Source: Patescibacteria group bacterium (GTDB lineage: Bacteria; Patescibacteriota; Minisyncoccia; UBA6257; UBA11618). From it: a stretch of 58,468 nt of DNA. The position numbers were made by a program, and so were the translations under genes. This document shows, in pieces, positions 2,297 to 58,439 of this stretch. The stretch covers positions 1 through 58,468 of the forward strand of contig JBDRBW010000009.1 of the NCBI GenBank assembly GCA_043822345.1, given 5' to 3'. The first letter of the stretch is position 1, and each line of letters opens with the position of its first letter. The notes under the pieces were generated by a model. That model did not search any database. It was not told the DNA's origin and worked only from the letters and a program-made list of their open reading frames with translations.

Positions 2297-2336
2297 TTTT
2301 TAAAGAGAAATTATTGGGGTAATTAAATAATTAAAA

Positions 2337-2655
2337 GAAAAGCGAATAAAATGTGTTTTTATTAGACTAAAGGCGAAGCGCTTACTTAGCCAACTAACGA
2401 ACGAAAAGAAGATTTCTTTAGAAAAACAAGCTGTTTGAGTCCCAAAAAAGGCAACTATAATCACGGCCGTGATTATAGTTGCCTTTTTTGGTTGAGTTCT
2501 TGTTTTTCTTACTCTATGAGGATAGTGAGAAAATAAATAAAACTTGTTTTATTTATTTTTGAACGACGAAGTTGAGCATCTGAAATATTCTTTGAGTGAG
2601 TTGGGTTGGCTTAGTAATAAAGCGGTCTAATAAAAACACATTTTATTCGCTTTTC
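2337..2655. repeat. large composite hairpin element, family D copy 1 (candidate structured RNA in the fusA 3' region)
   Basis: A perfect 31-bp outer stem (2337-2367 / 2625-2655) encloses sequence blocks shared with 24985-25205. Confidence 0.7.
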
Positions 2656-2662
2656 TTTCTCC

Positions 2663-4771
2663 TTACTTTTTCCTTCCCTCAATAATTTCCAGAGCCACAT
2701 TCACTGGCACCTGATCGTAATGATGAAATTCCATACTGAAAGTGCCGCGGCCTTGGGTAATAGAACGTAGTTTAGTGGCGTAGCCAAAAAGCTCAGCCAG
2801 TGGCACAAGAGCGTCAATAATCTTGATACCAGCCCGATCATCCATCTTTTCAATCTGGCCCCGCTTAGAGTTAAGATCGCCGGTCACATCGCCCAGAAAC
2901 ACTTCTGGTACAATAACCTGCACCGCCATAACCGGTTCTAGTAAAACCGGCTTACACCTCTTGGCACCCTCCTGAAAAGCGATTGATCCAGCTATCTTAA
3001 AGGCGGCTTCCGAGGAGTCCACTTCATGGAACGAGCCGTCATACAAAGTTACCTTAACATCAACTATCGGATAATGAGCAACAACGCCCTTCCCCAACGC
3101 TTCTTTGACGCCTTTTTCTACCGGCGAAATGTATTCTTTGGGAATAGTACCTCCCCTAATAGCGTCAACAAATTCAAAGCCAGCGCCCTTCTCTTGGGGC
3201 TCAATTTCTAACCAAACATGGCCGTACTGGCCGCGGCCACCAGATTGGCGGATATACTTACCCTCGGACTTAGCGGAGGTGGTAACCGTCTCCCGATAGG
3301 CCACCTGCGGCCGGCCAACGCTGGCCTCAACATTAAACTCCCGCTTCATCCGCTCAACAATCACCTCTAAATGCAGTTCACCCATACCAGAGATAATGGT
3401 TTCGCCGGTCTCAATGTCTCCGCTAACTCTAAAGGTTGGATCCTCTTCCGCCAAACGGTGTAAGGCAATGCCCATTTTTTCTTGATCGTCCTTAGTTTTA
3501 GGTTCAACTCGAATAGAGATAACCGGCTCGGGAAATACAATTTTTTCCAAAATAATTGGGTGATCAGGATCGCTAAGCGTGTCGCCGGTGGTGGTGTCTT
3601 TCATTCCCACTAATCCACCAATTTCACCAGTATAGATTTCGTCTACATCTTCGCGGTGGTTGGCGTGCATACGCAAAATTCGTCCCACCCGTTCCTTTTG
3701 CCCTTTGGAAACATTTAAAATATAACTGCCTTTTTTAAGCGAACCGGAATAGACCCGGAAGTAAGTTAACGAGCCGACGAAAGGATCGGCCGCCACTTTG
3801 AAAGCTAACGCGGAAAAAGGAGCGTCATCTTTAGCGGCGCGCTCCAGCTCCCCTTCAGTTTTTGGATCAATGCCTTTAGTAGGCGGCAGATCAGCTGGTG
3901 ACGGCAAGTAATCAACCACCGCATCCAAAACCAACTGAACACCCTTGTTTTTAAGAGCGGAGCCGGTAAAAACAGGCACTAACTTTACTTCTATTACCGC
4001 CTTGCGCAAAACTCGCTTTAAGTCGCCAGCGGCAATTTCCTTGCCTTCCAAAAAATCGCTCATTAATCCATCGTCATGTTCAACGATTTTTTCCACCAAC
4101 TCGGCGCGCCTTTTTTCCACTTCTTCTTTAAGGTCGGCGGGAATGTCGTCGCTTGCCTCCACAACCTCGCCTAATTTACCGCCAAAACGGTAAACCTTTC
4201 TGGTTAACAAATCAACCAATCCCTCAAAATTGGATTCTGTACCGATGGGTATCTGCATAGCGACAGCATCGGCCGTTAGCCGTTCTCTGATGGATTGCAA
4301 GCTGTGATTAAAACTGGCGCCGGTTCGGTCTAATTTATTAATAAAACAGATGCGTGGCACTTTGTATTCGTCGGCATAGCGCCAATTGGTCTCCGATTGC
4401 GGTTCAACACCAGCGACGCCATCAAAAACTACTACCGCGCCATCAAGGACACGCATGGAGCGTTTGACTTCAACGGTGAAATCAATGTGGCCGGGAGTAT
4501 CAATAATGTTAATGCGATGCTCTTGTTCCTTATTGCCTTTAGCATAAGTTGGTGTCCAAAAGCAGGTGGTGGCCGCCGAAGTGATGGTAATCCCCCGCTC
4601 CTGCTCCTGCTCCATCCAGTCCATTACCGCCGTCCCCTCGTGCACCTCGCCAATCTTGTAAGAAATGCCGGTATAAAAAAGCACCCGCTCGGTAACCGTG
4701 GTTTTACCGGCGTCAATATGGGCGATAATTCCTATATCACGGACTTTTTCTATAGGATACTTTCTAGACAT
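2663..4771 (-). CDS. fusA: elongation factor G
   Basis: [17 protein letters not shown] and NKLD GTPase motifs. Full-length EF-G-like 702 aa, downstream of rpsG. Confidence 0.98.
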
Positions 4772-4916
4772 GTCCTTAAAACTTAAAAACTAAAATCCTA
4801 AACGCCTAAATATAAACTAAATTCTAAAATATTAAACATCTAAAAGTTTTTATTTTTTAGTTTTTATTGTTTTAGTTTGTATTTAGATTTTAGATGTTTA
4901 GAAGTTTAGTTTTTAA
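4772..4916. repeat. AT-rich ctaaa/tttag imperfect palindrome, family E copy 1
   Basis: It fills the whole rpsG-fusA spacer. About 80 nt (4823-4909) are near-identical to 28011-28091. Confidence 0.7.
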
Positions 4917-5387
4917 TCAACGTCTGGCAAAATGCGCGAAGGCGCGATTGGCCTCGGCCATGCGATGAGTATTTTGTTTTTTCTTCATCGCTTCACCCTC
5001 GTTTTTGTAGGCCGCCAAAAGCTCCGCGGCCAAATGCTTGGCCATCGGCGCGCCTTTTTTTGCTCGCGCCGCGCCAATCAACCAGCGAGCCGCTAAGACA
5101 AACTTGCGATCAGCCCGCACTTCTCGCGGTACCTGATAATTGGCGCCACCAACGCGAGTGCTAACCACTTCCACCGCCGGCGAAACATTGGCGATGGCCT
5201 TCTCAAAAACCTCCAGTGGGTCTTCTTTGGTTTCTTCCTTTATTATATCAAAAGCATCATAAAGCACTTTCTCCGCTATCGCTTTCTTGCCGTCGTTCAT
5301 TAGGTAATTAATAAAACGCCCTGCCACAATGTTCTGATGGCGATAGTCCGGTCGATGCTCTTTTTTGTATAATTTTTTTCTACGCAT
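4917..5387 (-). CDS. rpsG: 30S ribosomal protein S7
   Basis: 156 aa with a typical S7 sequence, in str operon order. Confidence 0.97.
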   Translation of the reverse strand: MRRKKLYKKEHRPDYRHQNIVAGRFINYLMNDGKKAIAEKVLYDAFDIIKEETKEDPLEVFEKAIANVSPAVEVVSTRVGGANYQVPREVRADRKFVLAARWLIGAARAKKGAPMAKHLAAELLAAYKNEGEAMKKKQNTHRMAEANRAFAHFARR

Positions 5388-5389
5388 AT

Positions 5390-5800
5390 TTATTTAGGCT
5401 TTTTCGCTCCGTATCTTGACCGTTTCTGTTTACGCCCTTCAACGCCGGTGGTATCCAAACGGCCGCGGACGATGTGATAGCGGACGCCCGGCAGATCTTT
5501 TACCCGGCCGCCGCGAATCATTACTATGGAGTGTTCTTGTAAGTTATGCCCTTCGCCGGGAATGTAGGCGGTTACCTCATTGCCGTTAGTCAAGCGAACT
5601 CGGGCGATTTTCCGCAAAGCCGAGTTTGGTTTTTTCGGCGTCGTTGTTTTTACCTGCAAACAAACTCCCCGCTTAAAGGGAGAGGGCGAATTGACCGGCT
5701 CGTTTTTGAGATCGTTAAAATACCGCCGCAATGCCGGCGTCTTTGGTTTGGCAGTTTTACTTTTTCTGCCCGTTTTAATTAATTGCCTGATTGTGGGCAT
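5390..5800 (-). CDS. rpsL: 30S ribosomal protein S12
   Basis: MPTIRQLIK... has the canonical S12 N-terminus. The ORF extends two codons further, to 5806. Confidence 0.97.
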
Positions 5801-5845
5801 ATTCAAGTATGCTACACAATCAAATGGCGCATGTCAAATTCAGTC

Positions 5846-6063
5846 GTCATTCTGAACGAAGTGCCCGCCTGCCAGGCCGCCATCGGCTTTGCCGAAGGCA
5901 TGCCGGCGGGCAACGCTGTAGCACTTGCGGGCAGGAAGAATCTTTACCGGTTAAATTTCTCCCGCTCTTAGCGGGACCCCGCCAAGGCGGTGGTAATTCA
6001 CCTAATAAAATTTCTAATCGCCCAAGTTCCAACCCGTCATTGCGAGTGATAGCGAAGTAATCT
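5846..6063. repeat. composite of GTCAT-type elements (family A half, cccgcc..ggcggg module, gtcattgcgag..gaagtaatct unit)
   Basis: gtcattctgaacgaagtg at 5846, aagaatcttt near 5936, gtcattgcgagtgatagcgaagtaatct at 6036-6063. Lies upstream of rpsL. Confidence 0.7.
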
Positions 6064-6085
6064 TAACAATTTTTAATTTTCAAAA

Positions 6086-6121
6086 TGTCCAGCATATCCA
6101 CGATCGTGGATATGCTGGACA
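6086..6121. repeat. palindrome family F, copy 1 (variant)
   Basis: tgtccagcatatccacgatcgtggatatgctggaca is a perfect palindrome. It is closely related to the 38-bp copies at 50099, 50913 and 58402. Confidence 0.85.
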
Positions 6122-6972: not shown

Positions 6973-7624
6973 ATATGGGTAGATTTGGTCCAATTCCAAC
7001 CAGTAATAGTAGAATGTTGAAAACAAAGAAAACTACCGCCTGTAGGACGGGTAGGAGGAAGAGAATGAAGAAAATAATGAAGAAAAATCCATAACGTTCT
7101 AGCGTAGCTTGAATATGGGCGGCGGAATGCGGTAAAAAAGCAAAGAGGATTTTGGAGCCGTCTAGCGGCGGAAAAGGCACTAGATTAAAAACCGCCAGCA
7201 AGATATTAAGTAAAACAATGATACTAAAAGCGGTCATTAGCATTTCGCCGCCAATGCCAAAAGTTACCGGCAGGTGTAGTAATAGAGCAAAAACAGTTGC
7301 TAAAAAGATATTGGAGATCGGGCCGGCGGCGCCGATTATAGCCGCCCCCTTTTTGGGATCGGCTAGATTGTAGGGATTATAAGGCACGGGCTTGGCCCAG
7401 CCGATAATAATGGAACTGCCACCCAGAAGAATGGGAATAGCTAAAATCAACGGCACAATAATTGAGCCGAAAGGGTCAAGGTGTTTTAGTGGGTTAAGCG
7501 TTAATCGTCCCAGACGCTTGGCGGTATCGTCACCCAAATATAAAGCCACCGCTCCGTGAGAGATTTCATGAATCATTATGGAGAAAAGTAAGACTATTAG
7601 TTGGAAGATTAGTAAGGTAGCCAT
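6971..7624 (-). CDS. site-2 protease family (peptidase M50) membrane metalloprotease
   Basis: HEISHG (HExxH) in TM1, plus NLVPFPPLDG, the second S2P signature. The protein is polytopic. Confidence 0.8.
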   Translation of the reverse strand: MATLLIFQLIVLLFSIMIHEISHGAVALYLGDDTAKRLGRLTLNPLKHLDPFGSIIVPLILAIPILLGGSSIIIGWAKPVPYNPYNLADPKKGAAIIGAAGPISNIFLATVFALLLHLPVTFGIGGEMLMTAFSIIVLLNILLAVFNLVPFPPLDGSKILFAFLPHSAAHIQATLERYGFFFIIFFILFLLPVLQAVVFFVFNILLLLVGIGPNLPI

Positions 7625-23377: not shown

Positions 23378-23387
23378 GTAAATAAAT

Positions 23388-23412
23388 AAACGGTCGCCTA
23401 AGGCGACCGTTT
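23388..23412. terminator. AAACGG..CCGTTT hairpin (shared family)
   Basis: aaacggtcgcc-taa-ggcgaccgttt. Essentially the same hairpin occurs at 38601 and 57466. Confidence 0.65.
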
Positions 23413-23434
23413 ATTTATTTGGCTAAAATGCGTT

Positions 23435-24820: not shown

Positions 24821-24928
24821 TTTTTAATAATATATTTTCTAAATTATTTTTTCAAGAAAAAGATTCTCGTAATCGCACACGACTATCCAAAGAACCATCC
24901 CGTGACTAAGTTAAAAGTCTTATAAAAT

Positions 24929-24956
24929 TAAACGGCTCATAGGGGTGAGCCGTTTA
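24929..24956. terminator. AAACGG..CCGTTT hairpin (shared family)
   Basis: taaacggctca-tagggg-tgagccgttta, identical in core to 10176-10201. Confidence 0.6.
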
Positions 24957-24984
24957 ATTATTTACCTTATTTTACTAACTTCTA

Positions 24985-25205
24985 GAGAGAAAACCCCAAT
25001 CACTTTTCAATTCAACAGACTAAAGGCGAAGCGCCTTACTTAGCGAATTGACGAGATGAGGATAAATTTCTCTAGAAAAACAAGCTGTTTGAGTTCCAAT
25101 CTTTGATTGGGCGAGTTCTTGTTTTTCTTAGAAATTTATTTGAAGCGAGGAAAATGAGCTTAGTAATAAAGCGGTCTGTTGAATGAAAAGTGATTGGGTT
25201 TTCTC
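24985..25205. repeat. large composite hairpin element, family D copy 2 (candidate structured RNA in the groEL 3' region)
   Basis: An imperfect outer stem of about 30 bp (24985-25020 / 25174-25205). It shares blocks with 2337-2655: agactaaaggcgaagcgc.ttacttagc, gaaaaacaagctgtttgagt, gagttcttgtttttctta and gcttagtaataaagcggtct. Confidence 0.7.
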
Positions 25206-25209
25206 AACC

Positions 25210-26871
<1,662 letters not shown>

Positions 26872-26878
26872 TCACACA

Positions 26879-26960
26879 GTCATCCCGAGCGAGGCGTAGC
26901 CGAGTCGAGGGATCTCATCGATGAGATTTCTCCACTCGCTTTCAGCTCAGTCGAAATGAC
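26879..26960. repeat. family B palindromic element in the groES-groEL spacer
   Basis: gtcatcccgagcgagg...gagggatctcatcgatgagatttctcc...gtcgaaatgac. Confidence 0.8.
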
Positions 26961-26976: not shown

Positions 26977-27267
26977 TTATTCTAAAATTGCTAATATTTC
27001 CGACTCTTCGGCGACCAAATATTTCTTCTCATCCAATTCCACCTCATCCGGTCCGTATTTTTTAAACAGCACCATATCGCCAACTTTTACCGACATTGGC
27101 ATTAATTCGCCTTTATCATTCATTTTGCCCGGTCCAACCGCCACCACCTTGCCCTTCACCGGTCTTTCTTTGTCGGCAGTATCCGGTAAAACAATCCCCG
27201 ATTTGGTCATTTTTTCTTCTTCGACTGCTTCTATAAATAAATGGTTTGATAATGGTTTGATGTTCAT
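26977..27267 (-). CDS. groS: co-chaperonin GroES
   Basis: 96 aa with a typical GroES sequence (mobile loop, VGDMVLF). Confidence 0.97.
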   Translation of the reverse strand: MNIKPLSNHLFIEAVEEEKMTKSGIVLPDTADKERPVKGKVVAVGPGKMNDKGELMPMSVKVGDMVLFKKYGPDEVELDEKKYLVAEESEILAILE

Positions 27268-27311: not shown

Positions 27312-27385
27312 TGGAGCGGACAAGGAGAATCGAACTCCCATTTCAACCTTGGGAAGGTTGTGTGTTGCCACTACACTATGCCCGC
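27312..27385 (-). tRNA. tRNA-Gly (CCC), CCA encoded
   Basis: Folded by hand: acceptor GCGGGCA/TGTCCGC, anticodon stem CAACC/GGTTG with loop TTCCCAA, T arm GGGAG-TTCGATT-CTCCT, discriminator U, then CCA. Confidence 0.9.
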
Positions 27386-27957
27386 TATTGGCGTTCTATG
27401 GCTTCGCCGGTCCAATGAAAAGTACTAGAAAAGAGATGGACTTTCGCCTGATTTTTTTTGTTTTTTAGCCAATTATCAAAGTCCCGACTTTCTTCATTAA
27501 GTTTTTCTTGTAAAATCTCTTTTTCCGCCTGTGGTATTAGAATTAAATCAACAAAATCAGGAAATTCCAGATTAAACAAGGAAACCGCCGCCGCTTCTAA
27601 TTTAGGATTTTCCAAGTATTTGTCAACCTTATCCAAGACCAACTGGCCGCCATCATCGCCGGTGAAAGCATTAAAACCCTCGGCAACAATCAATTTTTCG
27701 ATTATTTTATCCAGTGTCGCCCGCTCTAAATCTTCCTTTAATTCTTTGATTTTTTCTTCGGTGAGATCGGGAATTTCGTAGGTCTCGATCGCCTGATTAT
27801 AGTATTGTTGGGCAGAGCTGTACTCCTGTTCAAACTGCCACTGCCAAACCAGCTGGGCATTAACCAACGCCAATGGATACCAACCAGATTGCAAAGCATA
27901 AACAAGACCGGTAGCGGAAAAGATTAAGATTAGAAAGACAATGTAGAATCTACCCAT
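27385..27957 (-). CDS. hypothetical membrane-anchored protein
   Basis: N-terminal TM helix, then a helical acidic ectodomain. The stop codon shares its first base with the tRNA-Gly 5' end. Confidence 0.55.
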   Translation of the reverse strand: MGRFYIVFLILIFSATGLVYALQSGWYPLALVNAQLVWQWQFEQEYSSAQQYYNQAIETYEIPDLTEEKIKELKEDLERATLDKIIEKLIVAEGFNAFTGDDGGQLVLDKVDKYLENPKLEAAAVSLFNLEFPDFVDLILIPQAEKEILQEKLNEESRDFDNWLKNKKNQAKVHLFSSTFHWTGEAIERQ

Positions 27958-28096
27958 ATTTTGAAAAATCTAAAAACTAAAGCCCCAAACATCTAAATAA
28001 TACCCCAAAATCTAAAATATTAAACATCTAAACTTATTTTTAGTTTTTATTGTTTTAGTTTATATTTAGATTTTAGATATTTAGTGTTTAGGTTTT
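27958..28096. repeat. AT-rich ctaaa/tttag imperfect palindrome, family E copy 2
   Basis: 28011-28091 is near-identical to 4823-4909. Confidence 0.7.
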
Positions 28097-32974: not shown

Positions 32975-34887
32975 TTGTAATTTTTTACATCTTTAACGCC
33001 GATCGCAGGATAAAGCGCTTCTAATGATTGCTGTCGCTCTTTTAATCTTCTTTGCGCTTCTACGGAGTTATTTTCTATCCATTCCTTGGGGAAAAATTTT
33101 TCTAAAGCACAGCCACCCCATTTGCATTTTGACGAATGCAATAGCCACTCCCGAAATCGTTTGGCGATTTCTTCGATCGTTGCCCGAGAATAAGTTTCGT
33201 TATCGGCGCGCATTTTTTTGAGGGCATCAATCATCTTGACTAAATCTTTTTGAAAGCTCTCGTTGCTGTCTTTTATCTCTTTTAAGCAGGATAATCGCGC
33301 CCTAGTGTTGGCATCGAGCGTTGATCTAAGCGCCTGATCGGTAAATGACCAGTTAACAATTATTTTGTCAATAATAACGGCCTGAGCGCCAATATTTTTG
33401 GCGGTTAAGCCAACAATTTTGGAAGAGTCAAGTTGGTCAAGTTTAATGTTGGCACTGTCAAGAATAAGATTGGTGGCTTGGCTATTGGTAGGCGGCGGCG
33501 TAGCGCTAAAACCAAAATGGTTAGTTTGAACGGAGCCGTCGCTCATAATAAAAGTGAGGCCAACAAGGGCGCCGGACATAGTTTTATTAAAATTAAGGAT
33601 GAGGTTGTAACTTTTACCGGGATTGAGGGTAAAGTTGGAAACATTAAGCGCCTCGCCTGACCGACCGAAACCAACCCACTCCATCCCCAAATTACCGCTG
33701 TAAATAAGAATTTGATTAATATTAACATTCAATCCTAAGGACTGGTTAAAGACCTGTATAACGCTCGTGTTTTCTTTAAATTGCTCTTCTAATAATCCAA
33801 TCATTGCGTCTAGCTTAGCCAAATCTTCAACAGTTGGTCCAACGCTATCGGGCGGTTCTTGGGGCAGCGGCACCTGGGCCACCGCCGGTAGATTATCAAT
33901 TGCGCAAGGATCATCATCTTGATTAGTGGGTGGTTTCGGCTGTGGTTTGAAAGCGAGACATTGTTTTTTGGCGTCAGCTGTTATAGTAACCGTGCAATTA
34001 AGAAGCGGTTTACCGCCATTATATTGTTTTTCATATGCCTCCCGTACCGGCTCAAAGATATTTTTCGGCGGACCAGAGTTAATAATACTTTCCGCAGAAA
34101 TATTAACAGGTTTTCCATTGACAGTTATTGCAAACTCATCATCGCTCATCCTCTTGATGTTAGTAATCTTCAGTTCGCACTTTTCCGGTGGCGGCTGGGG
34201 CTTGGGCTCGGTTGCCGGCGGTGGTGTTATTTTGCACTGTTGAAATCGCTGAAAATCTTTAATTCTTTGGGCAGCCGCTTGAAGTTCGTTGTTATAGTAT
34301 GTCCGTTCCCCATCAGTCATATAAGCGTCCCATATGCTATTAATAAGCGGTTTGGTATTTTTCAGATACCCTTCAAATTGGCGAAGGGCATTCTGAATTT
34401 TCTGGGACTGAGATACCGAATAGCGAACAACTTGATCGATATATTGTTTGTCGGCCGCGGTAAACTCACCGGTCGTAGTTCTTGTTTGAATCACTCCCAA
34501 ATTTTCTATTGCCCCCGGCTTATCACCTTGACCAACAAGATCGCTTTGTAACTGTTTGAGTGTGCTGATTATATTTTGCTGGTGCTGGATAATATTTGAT
34601 CTGATTGCCCTCTCTTTACCCGCGCCAATACCTCTGGCTTGGTTTATTTTTTGCCGCTGCTCTTGTATTTTTTGATTTAGGTCTCTTATGCCAACATTAG
34701 TTTCGTTAACGCCTTTTTTAAGGCGATTAACGATGTCGTCTATAGTTACGGTACATCCCCCTTGTTGGGCAAAAACAAAACCCGACATTGACCAAATTAA
34801 TACCAACAAAACCAATACTGCGATAAGTATTGACAAAATTATTATTTTATGATATAATTGCATTGGAAGATTAAATTTACCCGTCAT
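32956..34887 (-). CDS. membrane-anchored coiled-coil/Pro-rich protein with C-terminal Cys motifs
   Basis: TM helix, coiled coil, PPPATEPKPQPPPEKC, and a C-terminal CKWGGC ... CPICK. Overlaps the next gene by 19 nt. Confidence 0.6.
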   Translation of the reverse strand: MTGKFNLPMQLYHKIIILSILIAVLVLLVLIWSMSGFVFAQQGGCTVTIDDIVNRLKKGVNETNVGIRDLNQKIQEQRQKINQARGIGAGKERAIRSNIIQHQQNIISTLKQLQSDLVGQGDKPGAIENLGVIQTRTTTGEFTAADKQYIDQVVRYSVSQSQKIQNALRQFEGYLKNTKPLINSIWDAYMTDGERTYYNNELQAAAQRIKDFQRFQQCKITPPPATEPKPQPPPEKCELKITNIKRMSDDEFAITVNGKPVNISAESIINSGPPKNIFEPVREAYEKQYNGGKPLLNCTVTITADAKKQCLAFKPQPKPPTNQDDDPCAIDNLPAVAQVPLPQEPPDSVGPTVEDLAKLDAMIGLLEEQFKENTSVIQVFNQSLGLNVNINQILIYSGNLGMEWVGFGRSGEALNVSNFTLNPGKSYNLILNFNKTMSGALVGLTFIMSDGSVQTNHFGFSATPPPTNSQATNLILDSANIKLDQLDSSKIVGLTAKNIGAQAVIIDKIIVNWSFTDQALRSTLDANTRARLSCLKEIKDSNESFQKDLVKMIDALKKMRADNETYSRATIEEIAKRFREWLLHSSKCKWGGCALEKFFPKEWIENNSVEAQRRLKERQQSLEALYPAIGVKDVKNYKCPICK

Positions 34888-34977
34888 CCTGAACGAAGTG
34901 AAGGATCTTTAAAAGATTCTTCCTGCCCGCAATCGCTACGCCCAAGCGTTGCAGGCGGGCGCAGAGCTCAGAATGAC
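34883..34977. repeat. family A palindromic element with nested ctgcccgc..gcgggc module
   Basis: gtcatcctgaacgaagtgaaggatct-ttaaa-agattcttc[ctgcccgc...gcaggcgggc]..ctcagaatgac. Confidence 0.8.
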
Positions 34978-36420: not shown

Positions 36421-36471
36421 CTGACTAAATTATAACACTACCCCTAAGATAAATCTCTGTGGATAAAAAAT

Positions 36472-36506
36472 AAACGGCTCAATTTGGATTGAGCCGTTTA
36501 TTTTTT
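36472..36506. terminator. AAACGG..CCGTTT hairpin plus T run
   Basis: aaacggctcaa-tttgga-ttgagccgttt, then attttttt. Overlaps the lepA stop. Confidence 0.65.
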
Positions 36507-38381
36507 GAGCAATTCCTTAAAAATAGAGGTGGGGATTTGGACTTGAGATTTTTCGGCGCGTTCTTGAAGTTTAGCTTTTCCTTTTTGTTGTTTTTTCCAA
36601 AGTTTCATCTTGCGGGTGCGGTCGCCGCCGTAAAGATAGCCGGTAACGTCTTTTTTAAACGCCGAGATGGTCTCGCGGGCAATAATCTTGCCACCCACCG
36701 CCGCCTGAATAGCTTGGACGAACTGCTGGCGCGGCAATAATTCTTTTAACTTTTCCACAGTTTGCCGCGCCTCTCTTTCCAGTTTTTCCTTGGGAACAAT
36801 TCTGGTCAGCCCCGGCACCAGATGGCCGGCGATTAAAATCTCCAACTTTTCCAGATTACTTTTTTCATAACCAATTAGCTTATAACTTAAAGAAGCATAG
36901 CCCTCGGACAAGGATTTTAATTTATCATCAAAATCGCTGATGAGGTCGGCTAGAGGCAGTTTGGCAGTCACTAAAACCAGCTTTTCACCAATATTTTCCG
37001 TCTCAAAACCGCTTAAACGAAACCATTTCTTCAAAGACATCACACCGCCCAAATACTGCGGCGGCGCTACAATCTCCAACTCCACAACCGGCTCCTCCGC
37101 TTCGTCATACTCCGCCGGAAAATCTTTCGGACTATTAATGGGTTTACGACACCCATTAATGGAAATTTGGTAGGTGACGGAGGGGAAGCTGTGAATGGTG
37201 GCGATTTTGAACTCTTTTTGCAAACGCTCGGCGGTAATTTCAAAATGCAATTGTCCCAAAAAACCGCACTTAAACCCTTTGCCCAACAGCTCGCTTTTAT
37301 CTTGCTCAAAAAATAGTGATGAATCGGTAAGCTTTAGTTTTTCTAAAGCATTTTTTAAATCGCTATACTCACTACTATCTTCAGGATAAAAAGAAACAAA
37401 CACCACCGGCTGGGACTCAGCATAGCCCGGCAATACCAGCTTATCAAAATTTGAAATTTGAAATTTAAAATTTGAAATTATCGTATCTCCTATTTTAACT
37501 GGGCCAATATCCTTAATGCCAGTAGCGATGTAGCCAATTTCACCGGCGTTTAATTCTTTGGAAGATTTTAATTGGGGATGAAAATAGCCAACTTCTTTTA
37601 TTTTGGCGCTAGTTTTAGTTGCTAAAAATTGTATTTGATTTCCATTATTAAACCCACCATTAAAAATCCGCACAAAAGCAATCACCCCTCTATGGTCATC
37701 ATAAAGAGAGTCGAAGATAAGGGCGCGAGACACTCCGTCAGATCCTTCACTATGTTCTGGATGACGTGGTGAAGGGACTTTCTTAATAACTTCTTCCAAC
37801 AACTCCTCCACTCCTTCGCCAGTTTTGCCGGAAATTTTTAAAATCTCCTCCGGTTCAACTTTTAGAAGATCGGCGAGGGATTGGACAACCTCCTCCAGAT
37901 CGGGTGGATTGAGATCTATTTTACTAACAGCGCCAATAATGGTCAGGCCGGCTTTTTTGGCGGCATTAAAATTAGCCAGGGTTTGCGCCTGAATTCCTTG
38001 AGTAACATCTACCAGTAAAATCGCTCCCTCAACCGCCGCCAACGCCCGTGAGACCTCGTAAGAGAAATCAGAATGGCCGGGGGTGTCTATTAGATTTAGA
38101 ATGTATAGGCCATTGTCATTCTGAGTTCCGGCTTTAGCCGTGAACGAAGAATCTTTTACAGATCCTTCACTGTGTTCAGGATGACTAAAAGTGTAGTTCA
38201 TCCGCACTGGCGCCATTTTAATGGTAATCCCCCGCTCGCGTTCCGATTCCAGCCGATCCAAATACTGCGGCTTCATCTGCCGCTTTTCTATCGTGCCGGT
38301 AATCTCCAGCATCCGATCAGCCAGAGTTGATTTACCGTGATCAACATGGCTGATAATAACAAAGTTTCTGATATTGTTCAT
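36498..38381 (-). CDS. lepA: translation elongation factor 4 (LepA) carrying two repeat-derived in-frame insertions
   Basis: MNNIRNFVIISHVDHGKST, DTPGH. The ORF opens at TTG 38393, but the ATG at 38381 matches the canonical N-terminus. Confidence 0.95.
   Translation of the reverse strand: MNNIRNFVIISHVDHGKSTLADRMLEITGTIEKRQMKPQYLDRLESERERGITIKMAPVRMNYTFSHPEHSEGSVKDSSFTAKAGTQNDNGLYILNLIDTPGHSDFSYEVSRALAAVEGAILLVDVTQGIQAQTLANFNAAKKAGLTIIGAVSKIDLNPPDLEEVVQSLADLLKVEPEEILKISGKTGEGVEELLEEVIKKVPSPRHPEHSEGSDGVSRALIFDSLYDDHRGVIAFVRIFNGGFNNGNQIQFLATKTSAKIKEVGYFHPQLKSSKELNAGEIGYIATGIKDIGPVKIGDTIISNFKFQISNFDKLVLPGYAESQPVVFVSFYPEDSSEYSDLKNALEKLKLTDSSLFFEQDKSELLGKGFKCGFLGQLHFEITAERLQKEFKIATIHSFPSVTYQISINGCRKPINSPKDFPAEYDEAEEPVVELEIVAPPQYLGGVMSLKKWFRLSGFETENIGEKLVLVTAKLPLADLISDFDDKLKSLSEGYASLSYKLIGYEKSNLEKLEILIAGHLVPGLTRIVPKEKLEREARQTVEKLKELLPRQQFVQAIQAAVGGKIIARETISAFKKDVTGYLYGGDRTRKMKLWKKQQKGKAKLQERAEKSQVQIPTSIFKELLKK
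37740..37765. repeat. family A half element inside lepA
   Basis: agatccttcactatgttctggatgac encodes RHPEHSEGS. Confidence 0.75.
38115..38185. repeat. family A full element inside lepA
   Basis: gtcattctgag...gaagaatctttt-aca-gatccttcactgtgttcaggatgac encodes HPEHSEGSVKDSSFTAKAGTQND. Confidence 0.8.
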
Positions 38382-38492: not shown

Positions 38493-38600
38493 GTGAATGC
38501 CAAACGTAGTGGGTATATTTATCGCGGAGTTATTGTTTGGTTGTCTGCAGCTTTTTTAATAATTGGCATAATTGTCGCCGCAATTCTGAGTGCTCATTGA
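38493..38600 (+). CDS. hypothetical 35-aa membrane peptide
   Basis: GTG 5 nt after AAGGGGG: MNAKRSGYIYRGVIVWLSAAFLIIGIIVAAILSAH. A terminator follows. An alternative 20-aa frame starts at ATG 38497. Confidence 0.4.
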   Translation: MNAKRSGYIYRGVIVWLSAAFLIIGIIVAAILSAH

Positions 38601-38628
38601 AAACGGTCGCCTAAGGCGACCGTTTTTT
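38601..38628. terminator. AAACGG..CCGTTT hairpin plus T run
   Basis: aaacggtcgcc-taa-ggcgaccgtttttt, between convergent genes. Confidence 0.7.
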
Positions 38629-39154
38629 ATTCCAAAATCCCATCTAAATTAGTGTCGTAGAGAATTGCCTCGTTAATAAGACGATAATTTAATAGTTCTT
38701 CATCTTTAAACCAAAGCCCAATCTCTTTTTTGGCGTTTTTGGACTCATCAGAAGCATGAATAATATTACGCACTGCCCGACTATCCCGATCGGCCATTTG
38801 ATAAGAATCAATGGTAAAATCACCACGAATGGTGCCGACGTCTGAATTTAACGGCTCGGTTTTTCCCACTAGCTTGCGAACAATACCAACAGCATGGGCG
38901 CCCTGCCAAGCCATCGCCACCACCGGTCCGGAAGACATAAATTTTTTTAGATTTTCTAGTACTTCTTTACCGGTTCTGCCCAACCATTCCGGATCAACGG
39001 TATAATGTTTTTCAATAAAATCCGGCGTGGGAATAATCATCTTCATACCCACTAATTTAAGCCCGCTTCTTTCAAAGCGGCTAATAATTTCGCCGATTAA
39101 ACCGCGTTGGATGCCATCGGGTTTTATAAGCACTAATGTTTGTTCGTTTTGCAT
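38627..39154 (-). CDS. ndk: nucleoside diphosphate kinase
   Basis: LVLIKPDGIQRGLIGEIISRFE, GTIRGDF, NIIHASD. The ATG at 39154 is preferred; the ORF-track GTG at 39169 lies inside a repeat. Confidence 0.9.
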   Translation of the reverse strand: MQNEQTLVLIKPDGIQRGLIGEIISRFERSGLKLVGMKMIIPTPDFIEKHYTVDPEWLGRTGKEVLENLKKFMSSGPVVAMAWQGAHAVGIVRKLVGKTEPLNSDVGTIRGDFTIDSYQMADRDSRAVRNIIHASDESKNAKKEIGLWFKDEELLNYRLINEAILYDTNLDGILE

Positions 39155-39155: not shown

Positions 39156-40568
39156 TTAAGATTCTTCACTTCGTTCAGAATGACGGATTGAAAGACCTAA
39201 TTCGTCTAATTGTTCTTTACTCGCTTCGCTGGGGGCATCCATCATTAAATCACGGGCGTCGCCAGTTTTAGGAAAGGCGATGACTTCGCGAATATTGGGC
39301 TCGTCATTAAGAATAGCAACTAGCCGGTCAATACCGGCGGCAATCCCGCCATGAGGCGGAGCGCCAAAACCCAACGCCGCCAGCATATGACCAAAATTAG
39401 ATTTTATTTGGTCGTTTTTAACGCCAATTATTTGCAACACTTTTTTGAGTACTTTGGGATTGTGGCTACGAATACTGCCACCGGCCACCTCCTGTCCATT
39501 AAGCACTAAGTCGTACTGGTTGGTGATAATCTTGCCAATATTTTTCTCCTCCATTAACCATTGCTCATGTTCTTTAAGAGGCGCGGAGAAAGGATTGTGG
39601 GTAAATGTCCATTTGTCTTCTTTTGTTTTTTCGAAAAATGGGAAATTGGTTACCCAAGCGAAAGCCAACTCATCTTTGTCGTCTTTATTTTTGCGCAAGT
39701 CCGGCGAGTCGGTTTTGTATTTTTTTATTACATCAGCGTACTTCAGGCGAGGAAACGGCTTTTTGGTAAGTTTTTTGTGGGGAAAAAGTTTTTCCACCAT
39801 TTCAATAAACAAGCCCTCAATAACACCCATTACATCTTCTTTCTCCACAAATGACATTTCTAAGTCCAATTGAGTAAATTCCGGCTGGCGGTCGCCGCGA
39901 GTGTCTTCATCGCGAAAGCAACGGGCTATTTGAAAATACTTCTCCAACCCCGCCACCATCAATAATTGCTTATATTGCTGAGGAGCTTGAGGCAAGGCGT
40001 AGAACTTGCCGGGGTAGATACGGGAAGGCACAAGAAAATCACGGGCGCCCTCAGGGGTGGATTTGGAAATAATTGGTGTTTCTATTTCTATAAACTCCTG
40101 ATCGCTTAAATAATCCCTGATGAGTTTATTAATGGCATGGCGGCTACGCATATTTTTTTGCATCCGAGGACGGCGTAAATCAAGATAACGATACCGCAAG
40201 CGGCTTTCCTCGCCAATTTCCCTGCCGTCGGTATCAACAGCAATAGGCGGCGTTTCTGCTTTGTTTAACACCTCCAGATTTTCTACCAACACCTCCCATT
40301 TACCTGATTTAAGTTCAGTATTGATTAAATCCTTGGGACGTTTGTTGACTTTGCCGGTAATTTTAACCACCCATTCGGACCGTAATTCATCGGCCTGGCT
40401 AAATAACACTTTTTCTTTAGCGGTAAAAACACACTGCGCCAATCCGCTTTTATCCCTCAAATCTATAAAAATTATCTTGCCGTGGTCACGCCGAGCGCCC
40501 ACCCAGCCCATCAATATAACTTTTTTGCCCTCTTGTTTGCCGATGTCGGCAGTAAGTGTTCTTTGCAT
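39156..40568 (-). CDS. aspS: aspartate--tRNA ligase, bacterial type without GAD insertion
   Basis: QSPQ-like QAPQQYKQLLMV, FRDEDTRGDRQPEFTQLD (motif 2), GGIAAGIDR (motif 3). 470 aa. Confidence 0.93.
   Translation of the reverse strand: MQRTLTADIGKQEGKKVILMGWVGARRDHGKIIFIDLRDKSGLAQCVFTAKEKVLFSQADELRSEWVVKITGKVNKRPKDLINTELKSGKWEVLVENLEVLNKAETPPIAVDTDGREIGEESRLRYRYLDLRRPRMQKNMRSRHAINKLIRDYLSDQEFIEIETPIISKSTPEGARDFLVPSRIYPGKFYALPQAPQQYKQLLMVAGLEKYFQIARCFRDEDTRGDRQPEFTQLDLEMSFVEKEDVMGVIEGLFIEMVEKLFPHKKLTKKPFPRLKYADVIKKYKTDSPDLRKNKDDKDELAFAWVTNFPFFEKTKEDKWTFTHNPFSAPLKEHEQWLMEEKNIGKIITNQYDLVLNGQEVAGGSIRSHNPKVLKKVLQIIGVKNDQIKSNFGHMLAALGFGAPPHGGIAAGIDRLVAILNDEPNIREVIAFPKTGDARDLMMDAPSEASKEQLDELGLSIRHSERSEES
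39158..39184. repeat. family A half element forming the aspS 3' end
   Basis: aagattcttcacttcgttcagaatgac encodes RHSERSEES plus the stop. Confidence 0.75.
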
Positions 40569-43047: not shown

Positions 43048-44664
43048 TTATTTGTCTTTTTTGAGCGCGCCTTCAAGCGCACTACGGAGGGCGGCTATAT
43101 CAACGGATTGTTTTGGTGGTCTAGGAGTTTGAGGTCTAAGATTGGGTTTTTCAGGATGACGAGGGGGGGGCGTTGATAAGATTTCTCCACTACGGTCGAA
43201 ATGACTATGCGGTGGGCGGGGTGGAGACGGACGACGGAAAGATCCTTCACTTCGTCGAGTCAGACTCGACTGCGGTTCAGGATGACGCTGAGGATAATCA
43301 GAATGACGCGGAGTAAGAACCTCACGAAGAGGTTTTTCTTCGCGACGGGCGGCGCGATCGGTGGAAGTTTTTTCCGAGGTGGAAAGCCACTCTCGGGCGA
43401 TTTTTTCCTCCACCGTACTCTTGGGAATAGCATAACGACTGCGAGTGTTTTCTATAATGACATCAATAAAGTTTTCTGCCGATGGAGTGGGAGGCGCCAA
43501 GGTCTTGGCGGCAAAAGGACGAGAAGCCAAGCCATCAATCATTAACTTTATATAAATATGGTATTTTGCCAGATTAACTAGGTCGTTGATATCATACTCG
43601 GGATTAAACTCCTTTTCCACAAACTCGGCGTCTTTGGCGCCGATGCGAAAAATAGCCATCGTCCCCACGTTGCCAAAAATAGCCGAACGAACAGCGTAAG
43701 ATCCCTCATGATCCAACTGGTCTAAATACTGGTTGGCAAGAATGAGCGATAGCCGATATTTACGCGCCTCGGATAAAACATTCACAAAGGACTCGGTGGC
43801 GAAGTTCTGAAATTCATCAACGTATAAGTAAAAGTCACGGCGCTCCTCTTCGGGGACATTAACCCGCGACATCGCCGCTAATTGCAGTTTGGTAATAATC
43901 ATCGCTCCCAACAAAGCCGAATTATCCTCGCCAACTTTTCCCTTGGACAAATTAGCAATCAAAATCTTTCCCTCATCCATAATCTTGCGCATATCAATAG
44001 TAGAGTGCGCCTGCCCCAAGATGTTGCGAATGAGCGGATTGGAAATAAACTGGCCAACTTTATTTTGAATGGCGGCGGTCGCCTCGCTCTCAAAACGTTG
44101 ACTATACTTAGCAAACTCATCCACCCAAAAACTCTTAACCACCGGATCCTTTAAATTACTAACAATCTCTTTACGATACTCGGGATTATTAAGCATCCGC
44201 TGAATGCCCAGTAGAGTCGTCCCCGGATACTCCAACAATGCCAAAAGGGCGTTATTAAGAATATATTGCATGCGCGCCGACCAGGCGTCAGCCCAGATTT
44301 TTTTGAACACTCCCATCATACTGGAAGCCACCAAATGCCGAAAATCGGGACTCACCTCTTCTAATGGATTAAAAGAAATAGGAAATTCAGTATCGGAAGG
44401 GTCAATATAAATTACATCGTCCAGCCGCTCCTCGGGAATAAAGTTAAGAATGGTCTCGGCTGAACCGCCGTGAGGATCCAAAAACGCCACGCCATAACCG
44501 GCCTTAATATCATCAATAATCATATTCTCCAACAGAGTGCTTTTACCGACACCGGTTTTTCCTAAGACATAAACGTGGCGGCGACGGTCGTCATCCTTAA
44601 TACCAAAGCGGCGCGACTCGCCGCGGAAAACCGTCTCGCCTATAGTTGTGATGTGTTCCTTCAT
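43048..44664 (-). CDS. VirD4/TraD-like (DUF87-type) P-loop ATPase, soluble, with repeat-derived C-terminal tail
   Basis: Walker A GKTGVGKST, FLDPHG, Walker B LYVDEFQNF, LILANQYLDQL. No N-terminal TM. Confidence 0.75.
   Translation of the reverse strand: MKEHITTIGETVFRGESRRFGIKDDDRRRHVYVLGKTGVGKSTLLENMIIDDIKAGYGVAFLDPHGGSAETILNFIPEERLDDVIYIDPSDTEFPISFNPLEEVSPDFRHLVASSMMGVFKKIWADAWSARMQYILNNALLALLEYPGTTLLGIQRMLNNPEYRKEIVSNLKDPVVKSFWVDEFAKYSQRFESEATAAIQNKVGQFISNPLIRNILGQAHSTIDMRKIMDEGKILIANLSKGKVGEDNSALLGAMIITKLQLAAMSRVNVPEEERRDFYLYVDEFQNFATESFVNVLSEARKYRLSLILANQYLDQLDHEGSYAVRSAIFGNVGTMAIFRIGAKDAEFVEKEFNPEYDINDLVNLAKYHIYIKLMIDGLASRPFAAKTLAPPTPSAENFIDVIIENTRSRYAIPKSTVEEKIAREWLSTSEKTSTDRAARREEKPLREVLTPRHSDYPQRHPEPQSSLTRRSEGSFRRPSPPRPPHSHFDRSGEILSTPPPRHPEKPNLRPQTPRPPKQSVDIAALRSALEGALKKDK
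43150..43307. repeat. cluster of family A/B half elements inside the ATPase 3' end
   Basis: ttcaggatgac, agatttctccac..gtcgaaatgac, aagatccttcacttcgtcgag, ggttcaggatgac and tcagaatgac in tandem. Confidence 0.75.
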
Positions 44665-50042: not shown

Positions 50043-50098
50043 ATTATCTCATTTTTTATCTTATTATTTTTATTCCCGCCCCCTTCTTTTTTGCGTTC

Positions 50099-50136
50099 CT
50101 GTCCAGTATATCCACGATCGTGGATATACTGGACAG
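50099..50136. repeat. 38-bp perfect palindrome, family F copy 2
   Basis: ctgtccagtatatccacga|tcgtggatatactggacag. Confidence 0.9.
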
Positions 50137-50175
50137 AATGGGTAAAATAAATAAAAAGTGAGGTGAAAAATGATT

Positions 50176-50883
50176 TTATTTTACTTCACTTTGTTTCCTG
50201 ATCAACTTTTCTATATTTAAATTACCCGAGTGATTGATAGAAAAAATACTAATATGCTTATCCATATCTAAATTGTGTAAAAATTGAATAAAATCTTCCG
50301 GCAATTTAATATTTCCACACCAGACGCTTTTTTGAATCATTTGATAACCTAGGAATTTTAAAAATTCTCTAATCCAATCACGAACAGCCCGATGCTTTTC
50401 GGGTATGTCAAACGAAAAGATAATAATCTTCTTTTCTTTTTCTTTCTTGAATTCACTATTAAATAAAGATTGTCTAGCAATCGTCATTCTCAATTCCGCT
50501 ATTTTTCTCTTTCCTTTTTGGGTTAAAGAAATATTTTGGCTGTTGTCTTTTTCAATAAAACCTTCTCTGACTAGTTCATAAATCTTTTTCTGTCTTTTTC
50601 GTCTCTCTTGTTGATAAATTTTCTCGCGTAATTTTCTATCTCTTTCTTGGGTTAGCGCTCTATTTCTTTCTTGGCTTGCTTGTAATTCTTCCGCCGTTGG
50701 CGTCATGTCCATTACGCCCGTACCACCATATCGCTTGATTGGCTGTAATCTTGGATCTGGCGGTATTCGTCTATACTTTACGCTTTCTGATTTTTTATCG
50801 CCTTCCAATATTTCTTTCGCTCCCTTGGCGATGCTCTCTAAAATAGCGAGCGCGTATTCTCCCTTTAATTTAATTTTTTTCAT
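50176..50883 (-). CDS. winged-helix plus Cas2-fold/PaaX C-terminal-like protein (putative regulator)
   Basis: The middle segment YELVREGFIEKD....ISLTQKGKRKI is wing-like. The C-terminal KKIIIFSFDIPEKHRAVRDWIREFLKFLGYQMIQKSVW resembles the Cas2/PaaX_C beta-alpha-beta core. Confidence 0.55.
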   Translation of the reverse strand: MKKIKLKGEYALAILESIAKGAKEILEGDKKSESVKYRRIPPDPRLQPIKRYGGTGVMDMTPTAEELQASQERNRALTQERDRKLREKIYQQERRKRQKKIYELVREGFIEKDNSQNISLTQKGKRKIAELRMTIARQSLFNSEFKKEKEKKIIIFSFDIPEKHRAVRDWIREFLKFLGYQMIQKSVWCGNIKLPEDFIQFLHNLDMDKHISIFSINHSGNLNIEKLIRKQSEVK

Positions 50884-50912
50884 TTGTTCAAATTTAATCT
50901 ATTTCAATCTTT

Positions 50913-50950
50913 CTGTCCAGTATAACCACGATCGTGGATATACTGGACAG
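50913..50950. repeat. 38-bp palindrome, family F copy 3 (one mismatch)
   Basis: ctgtccagtataaccacgatcgtggatatactggacag, 30-67 nt upstream of the start at 50883. Confidence 0.9.
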
Positions 50951-51179
50951 AAAAGAAGACAAAAACTAATCCGAGAAATATTGTTTCCCCAATGCCATTT
51001 CAGCACTGCATTTTGTCCATTAAGCCGAAATAGATATTATGAATGTAGTATAAATATAAAAAGTATAAATAACAAAAATAAGCGAAGGTGGTTTTTTATC
51101 ATTTATAGGTTTACGTCCGTGAAAGAAGGCGAGGGGGCAAAGCTTCGGAAAAATTTCGCCCACTATAAGCCTCACAAAA

Positions 51180-54048: not shown

Positions 54049-54106
54049 GTCATTTTGAACGAATGTGAAAAATCTTTTAAAGATCCTTCGCTACGCTCAG
54101 GATGAC
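54049..54106. repeat. family A full element
   Basis: gtcattttgaacgaatgtgaaaaatctttt-aa-agatccttcgctacgctcaggatgac. Confidence 0.8.
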
Positions 54107-54115
54107 CAGAGGTGA

Positions 54116-56875: not shown

Positions 56876-56889
56876 AGTTTTCAGTATTC

Positions 56890-56949
56890 GTCATTCTGAA
56901 CAAAGTGAAGAATCTTTATAAAAGATCCTTCGCTAACGCTCAGGATGAC
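56890..56949. repeat. family A full element in the grpE-dnaK spacer
   Basis: gtcattctgaacaaagtgaagaatcttt-ataa-aagatccttcgctaacgctcaggatgac. Confidence 0.8.
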
Positions 56950-56960: not shown

Positions 56961-57419
56961 TCATTTTGTCACTTTTACTTTTGTGGGGCGGATTATTTTG
57001 TCGTATAATTTATAACCCGCTTCTACTATTTCAACAATCGTATCAGGTGGCTGTCCCGACTCAACTGCCACCACCGCCTCGTGAAGCGCTGGATTAAAAC
57101 TATCGCCGATATTGACTAATAACTTTTCAAGGCCGTGTTTTTTTAAAAGATTTTCTAGTTGAGACTGGATAAGCGATAATCCTCTAGTAGATTCTTCGCC
57201 CTGCTCAGAATGACTAACCGCCGTAGCCAAAGTAAAACTATCCAATACCGCCAATAGATCGCCGACAATCCCCTCATTGGCAAATTTAATAATCTCCTCA
57301 AAGCGCTTCAGTTCGTCTTTTTTGTAATTAATCAACTCCGCCTTAGCCCGCTTCCAACCGTCAAGATACTCTTCTTCCTTCGTCAAAGCTTCCGTGGGTT
57401 TTTCCTTATTCTCTTCCAT
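56961..57419 (-). CDS. grpE: nucleotide exchange factor GrpE with repeat-derived insertion
   Basis: ...AELINYKKD..., LLAVLDSF, HEAV......V..GY.L..K.IRP..V. 152 aa. Confidence 0.9.
   Translation of the reverse strand: MEENKEKPTEALTKEEEYLDGWKRAKAELINYKKDELKRFEEIIKFANEGIVGDLLAVLDSFTLATAVSHSEQGEESTRGLSLIQSQLENLLKKHGLEKLLVNIGDSFNPALHEAVVAVESGQPPDTIVEIVEAGYKLYDKIIRPTKVKVTK
57189..57214. repeat. family A half element inside grpE
   Basis: agattcttcgccctgctcagaatgac encodes SHSEQGEES. Confidence 0.75.
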
Positions 57420-57465
57420 AAATATGCTTATTATTATAAATTAATTAAAAAAATGTGTCAAATTT

Positions 57466-57490
57466 AAACGGTCGCCTCAGGCGACCGTTT
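57466..57490. terminator. AAACGG..CCGTTT hairpin (shared family)
   Basis: aaacggtcgcc-tca-ggcgaccgttt. Confidence 0.65.
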
Positions 57491-57522
57491 ATTTCTAGCC
57501 TCCAGTATCTAGCTTCCAGCTT

Positions 57523-58320: not shown

Positions 58321-58401
58321 GTTCTTAATTATAACATACCGCCATAATTATTTTACATCCTCTTTTAAAACCTTCTCTATATATTATAAAGTATAATATA
58401 C

Positions 58402-58439
58402 CTGTCCAGTATATCCACGATCGTGGATATACTGGACAG
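58402..58439. repeat. 38-bp perfect palindrome, family F copy 4
   Basis: Identical to 50099-50136. Lies 82 nt upstream of the start at 58320. Confidence 0.9.

Follow-up and report, generated by a model that had tools for sequence, protein, structure and literature searches.

Fold-back elements beyond fusA and groEL in a Patescibacteria contig belong to a structured repeat family present in several phyla and in phages

The window analysed here, a 58,468-nt stretch of Patescibacteria DNA, carries fusA (a 702-aa open reading frame, 2663-4771, minus strand) and groEL (25210-26868, minus strand), the latter with groES at 26977-27267. Directly past the stop codon of fusA lies a 325-nt fold-back (copy 1, 2334-2658), whose outer stem ends 4 nt from that codon, and a second fold-back lies directly past the stop codon of groEL (copy 2, 24987-25205). 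Both are intergenic, and they are the only two copies in the window. Their folds are far beyond those of shuffled controls (z = -16.5 for copy 1 and z = -9.35 for copy 2). The initial annotation described the outer stem of copy 1 as perfect and 31 bp long; it is indeed perfect, but measures 34 nt at 100% complementarity. In copy 2 the outer arms show Watson-Crick pairing along their whole length, interrupted by two 1-nt bulges. Between the copies, the outer stems are unlike in sequence except for a weak GAAAA..AAT start; they share a layout of A-run, GC clamp, long stem, GC clamp and U-run, with U-rich tails flanking the stem on both strands in either copy.

Four sequence blocks, A to D, are common to both copies, with order and strand preserved; they differ by one indel and two mismatches (Table 1). 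For the 20-mer of block D, 100 shuffles gave no chance match. The sequence between the blocks is, by eye, ~50% identical between the copies, so the near-identical blocks are either constrained or being homogenised within this genome. Copy 1 additionally contains extra segments of 44 nt and 70 nt. The two elements are true paralogues, as the initial annotation had proposed.

Table 1. Positions of the parts of both elements within the window (R1, covariance model of the repeat family)
Feature	Position	Strand	Remark
Copy 1, outer stem, 5' arm	2334-2367	+	A-rich start AAAGAAAAGCG; 34/34 complementary to 2625-2658
Copy 1, block A (AGAC UAAAGGCGAAGCGC UUACUUAGC)	2364-2390	+	equals 25017-25044 except for one C
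Copy 1, block B	2412-2445	+	94% identical to 25066-25099
Copy 1, helix P4, 5' strand (AGAAAAACAAG)	2420-2430	+	pairs with 2499-2509; placed as P4 by R1
Copy 1, family-defining loop, 5' side (CUGUUUGAGU)	2431-2440	+	inside R1 match 2404-2525(+)
Copy 1, enlarged apical helix P5 (perfect 50-bp palindrome)	2442-2491	no strand	A6/T6 flanks
Copy 1, block C: loop 3' side GAGUU and P4 3' strand	2494-2511	+	equals 25113-25130
Copy 1, extra segment (~70 nt)	2512-2581	+	missing from copy 2 (alignment gap)
Copy 1, 14-bp AT hairpin	2530-2559		within the extra segment 2512-2581
Copy 1, block D (GCUUAGUAA UAAAGCG GUCU)	2609-2628	+	exact repeat of 25158-25177
Copy 1, outer stem, 3' arm	2625-2658	+	followed by a U-rich run, on both strands
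Bidirectional terminator hairpin of ordinary type past copy 2	24921-24964	no strand	context, outside the repeat
Copy 2, outer stem, 5' arm (GAGAAAACCCC...)	24987-25020	+	pairs with 25174-25205
Copy 2, block A	25017-25044	+	one indel relative to copy 1
Copy 2, apex module	25058-25144	+	R1 match, 58 bits, E = 1.4e-13
Copy 2, block B	25066-25099	+	
Copy 2, helix P4	25074-25084 / 25118-25128	+	
Copy 2, loop (CUGUUUGAGU / CGAGUU)	25085-25094 / 25112-25117	+	
Copy 2, helix P5	25095-25101 / 25105-25111	+	
Copy 2, block C	25113-25130	+	
Copy 2, block D	25158-25177	+	
Copy 2, outer stem, 3' arm	25174-25205	+	ends 4 nt short of the groEL stop codon

Block A of copy 1 contains the 5' strand of helix P2 as well as a short helix and a bulge of 11 nt that carries a mini-hairpin. 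The idea that the stems between the blocks differ in sequence and keep their pairing holds for the outer stem and for the apex but fails for the middle of copy 2, where most of the stretch from block A to block B forms an unpaired bubble, purine-rich in both arms, and only ~8-9 bp are paired. The apical palindrome of copy 1 consists of two arms (2442-2466 and 2467-2491) of 25 nt each that are 100% complementary with zero spacer, is handled by model R1 as a 40-nt insertion in P5, and is shaped like a bidirectional terminator (A6-stem-T6). There is not a single G-U pair in the perfect 34-bp and 25-bp stems of copy 1. These stems fit palindromy at the DNA level better than selection on RNA only.

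The part of the element that led to its relatives is the asymmetric internal loop formed by blocks B and C, 5'-CUGUYYGAG(U) / (C)GAGUU-3', which sits at the apex between two helices. From this loop alone a search pattern was derived (AAGCTGTTTGAGT, 10-40 unspecified bases, GAGTTCTT) and scanned against a collection of bacterial and archaeal genomes holding one genome per species (596 Gb). It matched at least 119 loci, compared with ~8 matches expected by chance; IMG/VR contributed three further real copies. The closing helix P4 was extended by at least five of the six further complementary bases in 107 of the 118 testable matches. Nine of the remaining 11 are clear chance hits, mostly within ORFs; L071 and L072, with four of the six further bases paired, are genuine copies that were also recovered by the covariance model. 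The module common to the family reads helix P4, 5'-CUGUUUGAGU, helix P5 of free length, (A)CGAGUU-3', P4'.

Among the matches listed, the carriers include Desulfobacterales and other Deltaproteobacteria, Bacteroidota, Ignavibacteria/Melioribacter, Cloacimonetes and Omnitrophota, together with Gammaproteobacteria (Chromatiales and the Solemya velum symbiont). Within the Bacteroidota the repeat occurs in Flavobacterium palustre, F. sufflavum, F. glycines and F. magnesitis as well as in Wenyingzhuangia, Lutibacter, Pedobacter, Draconibacterium, Carboxylicivirga and Sediminibacterium. Several of these carriers are in culture (several Flavobacterium species, Pedobacter flavus, Lutibacter holmesii and Wenyingzhuangia marina).

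A covariance model, R1, was built from an alignment of 50 diverse sequences, with copy 1 absent from the seed. It nevertheless recognised copy 1 at 2404-2525 of the plus strand (47.2 bits, E = 1.9e-10), and the apices of copy 1 and copy 2 were its only matches in the window, both on the plus strand. Both window copies therefore belong to the fold-back repeat family. Moreover, R1 found 13 copies that the exact pattern had missed, in which CUGUYYGAG/GAGUU was kept and the closing AAG/CUU was swapped in step to AAU/AUU, AUA/UAU or GAA/UUC; the conservation of the loop is thus not merely an artefact of how the copies were collected.

Helices P4 and P5 covary strongly in the 50 diverse sequences, with a score of 0.434 vs 0.153 for shuffled alignments and none of 500 shuffles reaching the observed value; with slid partner columns as a control, the score was at most 0.21. 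Cells with changes on both sides numbered 173 vs 66.5 after shuffling. A single pair of columns, 28-91, illustrates this, being occupied by AU (19), GC (14), UA (13) and CG (4) with zero mismatch, and RNAalifold independently recovered P4 and part of P5. The initial annotation had taken conserved loops and covarying stems as a sign of selection on a fold: further copies do exist and do show compensatory changes, and the loops are conserved between covarying helices, but the G-U-free perfect stems of copy 1 fit selection on RNA only less well.

Most members carry a second small loop, GCGUUAA / UAGC, next to P4, and purine-rich bubbles in both arms of a longer hairpin. In the window copies, CUA / UU stands where the family has GCGUUAA / UAGC, which marks them as a divergent subfamily. 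The order of the fold is the same in the window copies as in the family: outer helix, bulge, helix, purine-rich bubble, helix, small loop, P4, loop and P5. Three apical bases (CCCGAGC-NNN-GCGAGG) differ among otherwise near-identical copies in Desulfobacterales loci such as L020, L044, L048 and L068. At the 3' end of Bacteroidota-type copies, a conserved U-rich tail carries repeats that interleave as A-B-A'-B', e.g., GUCUUGAU..GGUACUUUUG..AUCAAGAC.AAAAGUAC (L019, 1880-1925; also 3' of the copies in L036, L064, L079, L093, L120 and L128). The interleaved repeats covary between taxa, suggesting two alternative hairpins or a switch.

Searches with the individual blocks and with known models yielded little. 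Exact searches with block D gave no match in IMG/VR and one chance match, inside a peptidase gene, in JGI metagenomes; block A had no match in IMG/VR or in the genome collection, and the five matches of block B in IMG/VR were chance matches in phage head genes, none of them real. Likewise, blastn with copy 2 and one Bacteroidota member against phage and plasmid records returned no match. The comparison with Rfam 15 that the initial annotation had suggested produced no matching family: neither the window copies nor the family members reached a gathering score. When the E-value limit was relaxed to between 1 and 10, the window copies matched nothing but generic hairpins, at scores far below the gathering score, and of two family members one gave a single irrelevant match and the other none. 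We found no description of the family in the searchable literature, by sequence or by keywords, in a search that covered a part of the journals. The FopS small RNAs of Bacteroides, considered as candidates, are unrelated, being 65-70 nt long with promoters of their own.

Is the conserved part a functional RNA? Such an RNA, e.g., a self-cleaving ribozyme, a small regulatory RNA or a protein sponge, would be made from the plus strand, be multi-copy or travel on mobile DNA, and use the loop as its active or binding site. Several properties of the family lean this way. The asymmetric loop is conserved across phyla between covarying helices; G-U pairs (31) outnumber A-C pairs (14) and the mismatches are mostly purine-purine; the purine-rich bubbles have the same sequence in both arms on one strand only; and the Bacteroidota copies add the conserved 3' U-rich tail with its covarying interleaved repeats. 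From the excess of G-U over A-C and the purine-rich loops it appears that one strand matters, namely the plus strand of the window, which is antisense to fusA and groEL. The conserved centre together with this strand asymmetry hints at a function for one folded strand. Against an RNA gene, however, conservation begins abruptly at the hairpin, with no conserved promoter among family members and no promoter-like site inside the window copies; the orientation to neighbouring genes is random, the Desulfobacterales copies have transposon-like inverted ends, and the perfect stems of the window copies do without G-U pairs. On balance we regard a functional RNA of this kind as unlikely.

Particular RNA and protein-binding motifs were compared as well. 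The hammerhead was rejected, having no Rfam match and, on direct reading, different core nucleotides. No match in Rfam 15 was obtained for other self-cleaving ribozymes (twister, twister-sister, pistol, hatchet), HEARO or 6S. A canonical kink-turn would be an uneasy fit: tandem G·A pairs are possible, but the strand registers are off the standard layout and RNAalifold pairs UUUG with CGAG. Dismissed, like the hammerhead, were a -1 frameshift site (A AAA AAG followed by a hairpin), as the heptamer is not conserved, an IHF site, the consensus being unmatched, and a small ORF within the element, since only copy 2 has such an ORF (16 codons) and apex lengths across the family do not come in multiples of three.

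The position of both copies beyond highly expressed genes might be read as a link to these genes, with dedicated 3'-UTR structures under selection for regulating the fusA and groEL transcripts or keeping them stable. Each copy indeed starts no more than 4 nt from the stop codon, and the two have the same orientation relative to their genes; copy 2 precedes a real terminator, and the folds are very stable. The shared orientation carries little weight, because nearly all genes of the window are on the minus strand. The best matches of the elongation factor EF-G (75-81% identity) come from Patescibacteria/Parcubacteria, near Harrisonbacteria and Jorgensenbacteria. We compared the window with ~150 kb from the nearest relatives (EF-G 77-81% identical), spread over ten loci, of which six have groEL-thyX-M50-S12-S7-fusA together and four cover the fusA end only. 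There, fusA is followed by a spacer of 8-65 nt or a plain terminator and groEL by 57-59 nt, and the covariance model had no match in any of the ten loci. The copies in the window are therefore insertions in this lineage rather than a conserved part of these operons. Furthermore, family members adjoin unrelated genes in any orientation, and since the sense strand of the family is the plus strand of the window, the fusA and groEL mRNAs would carry the complement of the conserved loops. The proposed tie to fusA and groEL, or to highly expressed genes in general, was accordingly not upheld, and selection for control of these two transcripts appears barely tenable, being already largely refuted. 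A repeat that is widespread and often multi-copy in Bacteroidota, Ignavibacteria, Desulfobacterales and phages is a lodger at gene ends, not a regulator of fusA or groEL.

An influence on transcript ends is a separate matter. Judged by their shape, the outer stems appear to have the form of two-way terminators, the layout being terminator-like on both strands, but they enclose 150-260 nt, and an intrinsic-terminator scanner made zero calls inside either element. Given the normal terminator beyond copy 2, this copy is probably transcribed within the groEL 3' UTR if there is read-through, in antisense to the family. For fusA, no other minus-strand terminator was seen before the small gene at 1953-2240, so that the outer stem of copy 1 may be the actual stop. 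This small plus-strand ORF (region 1870-2298) encodes 95 aa without a Pfam hit, converges on fusA across copy 1, and has a perfect TTGACA-17-TATAAT promoter and a terminator of its own. The gene order of the region (window 1-27300) also differs from that in the relatives L136-L139: the tuf-S10 operon does not come after fusA, and the distance between groEL and the thyX-M50-S12-S7-fusA block is ~16 kb, compared with ~2 kb in the relatives.

Across the family the repeat behaves as an intergenic element. About 109 of the 121 matches listed are intergenic, and their orientation to the neighbouring genes is random ((-,-) 24, (+,+) 20, convergent 11, divergent 10). No neighbouring protein family recurs among the 119 loci listed, and neither a transposase nor another mobilising gene was found among the neighbours of the copies listed. 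In Desulfobacterales MAGs, at least 29 distinct copies align over ~280 nt, with most columns 80-99% conserved and unrelated flanks; the unit measures ~260-280 nt, with ~240 nt between the inner repeat anchors. Its ends are sharp (TATAG..TCAAAATAACGTTCCG ... CGGAACATATTTATGA..CTATA) and form imperfect terminal inverted repeats of ~27 bp with TATA on both borders, and many copies stand at contig ends. This unit bears the signature of a MITE-like, i.e., non-autonomous, transposon. A different picture emerged for Flavobacterium, whose ~205-nt unit is highly conserved in four species, again between unrelated flanks. Here the ends are asymmetric and without terminal inverted repeats, with a U-rich 3' tail (interleaved covarying repeats) and an optional 48-nt insert, so the way of moving may differ between subfamilies. 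At neither window copy was a target-site duplication visible, and no pair of empty and filled sites was seen for the element. Terminal inverted repeats common to both window copies are absent, as the outer stems differ, whereas the Desulfobacterales relatives have them. An autonomous version with a gene inside P5 of a split copy was also sought; only pairs of separate copies turned up.

Phage or prophage regions of Bacteroidota and Ignavibacteria, recognised by major capsid protein, terminase and GH108 endolysin genes, hold two or three copies each, providing a route for spread between hosts. Such copies lie in L133 (3141-7128), L134 (1750-1840 and 9352-9441) and L042 (2017-3815); capsid E is encoded there, and one copy is located just past the major capsid gene region. 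In a chromosomal locus of Prolixibacteraceae (L046, 700-7420), four same-strand copies occur within 8 kb, one or two genes apart, and two of them are directly followed by C-terminal fragments of Phage_integrase, a tyrosine recombinase (5133-5468 and 7051-7413).

The arrangement in L046 recalls the recombination sites that tyrosine recombinases use as single-stranded DNA, such as integron attC or the attachment site of CTX phage, in which case the copies would mark cassette boundaries. Like attC, the repeat would be a folded-strand site with conserved, asymmetric bulges, a variable apex and a structure better conserved than its sequence, and chromosomal integrons are known in taxa that overlap the carriers of the repeat. 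The defining R''/R' core pair of attC (RYYYAAC / GTTRRRY) is, however, missing from copy 1 and from the family consensus, the ATTCAAC / GTTGAAT found in copy 2 only being there by chance. The units, at 160-320 nt, exceed typical attC sizes, no consistent array organisation exists, orientation to ORFs is random, and there is no integrase gene near most copies. A single-stranded recombination site of this type is thus highly improbable.

In behaviour, the family seems closest to the ERIC/IRU elements and to the Correia-type MITEs. ERIC or IRU elements of enterobacteria are imperfect palindromes of ~130 nt or more that lie in intergenic, usually transcribed DNA only, in either orientation; their sequence is conserved across genera, and some copies have grown by insertions, which fall at fixed places inside the element. 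They have no known mobilising enzyme. They are said to have been described by Sharples and Lloyd in 1990, Hulton in 1991 and Wilson and Sharp in 2006. The present elements are likewise intergenic imperfect palindromes, and the 44-nt and 70-nt extras of copy 1 and the optional 48-nt insert in Flavobacterium are comparable to such enlargements. In contrast, there seems to be no visible resemblance to the ERIC/IRU sequences, and the present family spans several phyla as well as phages and is best conserved in an asymmetric apical loop.

Correia elements (NEMIS) of Neisseria and other MITEs (Nezha, Chunjie, RUP) are non-coding fold-backs of small size, bounded by terminal inverted repeats and TA-type borders. 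They often occupy the gap between stop codon and terminator, are co-transcribed, and can terminate transcripts or make them more stable. The Desulfobacterales subfamily is similar in having many near-identical copies that break assemblies. However, the ends are the conserved functional part of a MITE, whereas the present family conserves its centre across phyla; its ends vary from one subfamily to another and are unlike in the two window copies, and a parent insertion sequence was not found. REP sequences and REPINs, which depend on RAYT transposases, are at most ~100 nt long and species-specific in sequence, with a GTAG head. They, too, are multi-copy extragenic hairpin repeats of two inverted halves, thought to act as single-stranded DNA, but neither a RAYT gene nor a RAYT-like cluster occurs among the proteins neighbouring the listed copies. 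The conserved asymmetric centre, the span of phyla and the presence in phages appear to set the present family apart from its closest counterparts.

Weighing these observations, we consider it fairly probable that both elements in the window are diverged copies of a non-coding, non-autonomous fold-back repeat that spreads between genomes, including those of phages, with the apex as its recognition module. The element would be moved in trans, in the Desulfobacterales apparently by a cut-and-paste route, given the ~27-bp imperfect terminal inverted repeats bordered by TATA. It would persist where insertion is harmless, which in a compact genome of the candidate phyla radiation (Patescibacteria) would mean a few nucleotides past stop codons. 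The conserved apex would be the putative site at which a partner, the mobilising enzyme or else a host factor, binds or recognises the element. After insertion, the outer hairpin (A-run, long stem, U-run) probably, as its shape suggests, stops transcription from both directions or protects the 3' ends of the fusA and groEL transcripts; any such effect would be a by-product of the hairpin rather than gene-specific regulation. For a MITE it is unusual that the centre, not the ends, is most conserved.

More speculatively, the apex might be a new functional nucleic-acid motif that is carried across phyla by a fold-back mobile element and by phages and is kept by selection on one strand, a thought we offer tentatively and with some doubt. 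Such a motif could be a small ribozyme, a protein-binding site resembling a kink-turn, or a single-strand recognition hairpin for a new route of mobilisation, and would amount to a structured element, uncatalogued and shared across phyla, for which cultured carriers are ready for experiments.

What looked like a two-copy curiosity of an uncultured Patescibacteria bacterium has thereby opened the way to a large family that is missing from Rfam and from the searchable literature: a structured fold-back repeat common to at least five phyla and to phages, with a core under clear structural constraint. The cultured carriers make it directly testable how the element moves, why its centre rather than its ends is conserved, and whether it shapes transcript ends. 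In practical terms, repeats of this kind break metagenome assemblies and can pass for gene-specific regulatory RNAs.

The source genome is rich in other perfect palindromes and repeats. A perfect 38-bp palindrome (CTGTCCAGTATATCCACGA|TCGTGGATATACTGGACAG) is present in four copies (6084-6121, 50098-50137, 50912-50951 and 58401-58439), two of which bracket an ORF at 50176-50883(-) with a PaaX-central / Cas2-like domain; these palindromes may constitute an operator pair or another repeat family. Two contigs of the nearest relative, L008 (9760-9783) and L009 (4004-4027), end ~78 nt past fusA inside the palindrome TTAGTGACGATCGTCACTAA, the centre of which (ACGATCGT) equals the centre of the window palindromes; the contig ends look like an assembly break at a repeat or palindrome. 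The ~27-nt repeat GTCATYCTGAACGAAGTGAAGRATCT and its complement occur in nine or more copies, some as inverted pairs (5836-5863, 26879-26960, 34873-34900, 37740-37766, 38160-38186, 39159-39185, 43240-43266, 54081-54107, 56880-56915 and 57189-57217). Two copies of a 60-nt AT-rich repeat (4783-4916 and 28037-28096) are 88% identical; one fills the rpsG-fusA spacer within a 63-nt imperfect inverted repeat, and the other is located upstream of the gene at 27385-27957. Finally, the terminators form a sequence family of their own, TAAACGGYC...GRCCGTTTA, composed of near-perfect palindromes flanked by A/T-runs, at 23380-23420, 36465-36506, 38600-38629, 57465-57494 and, past copy 2, 24921-24964.
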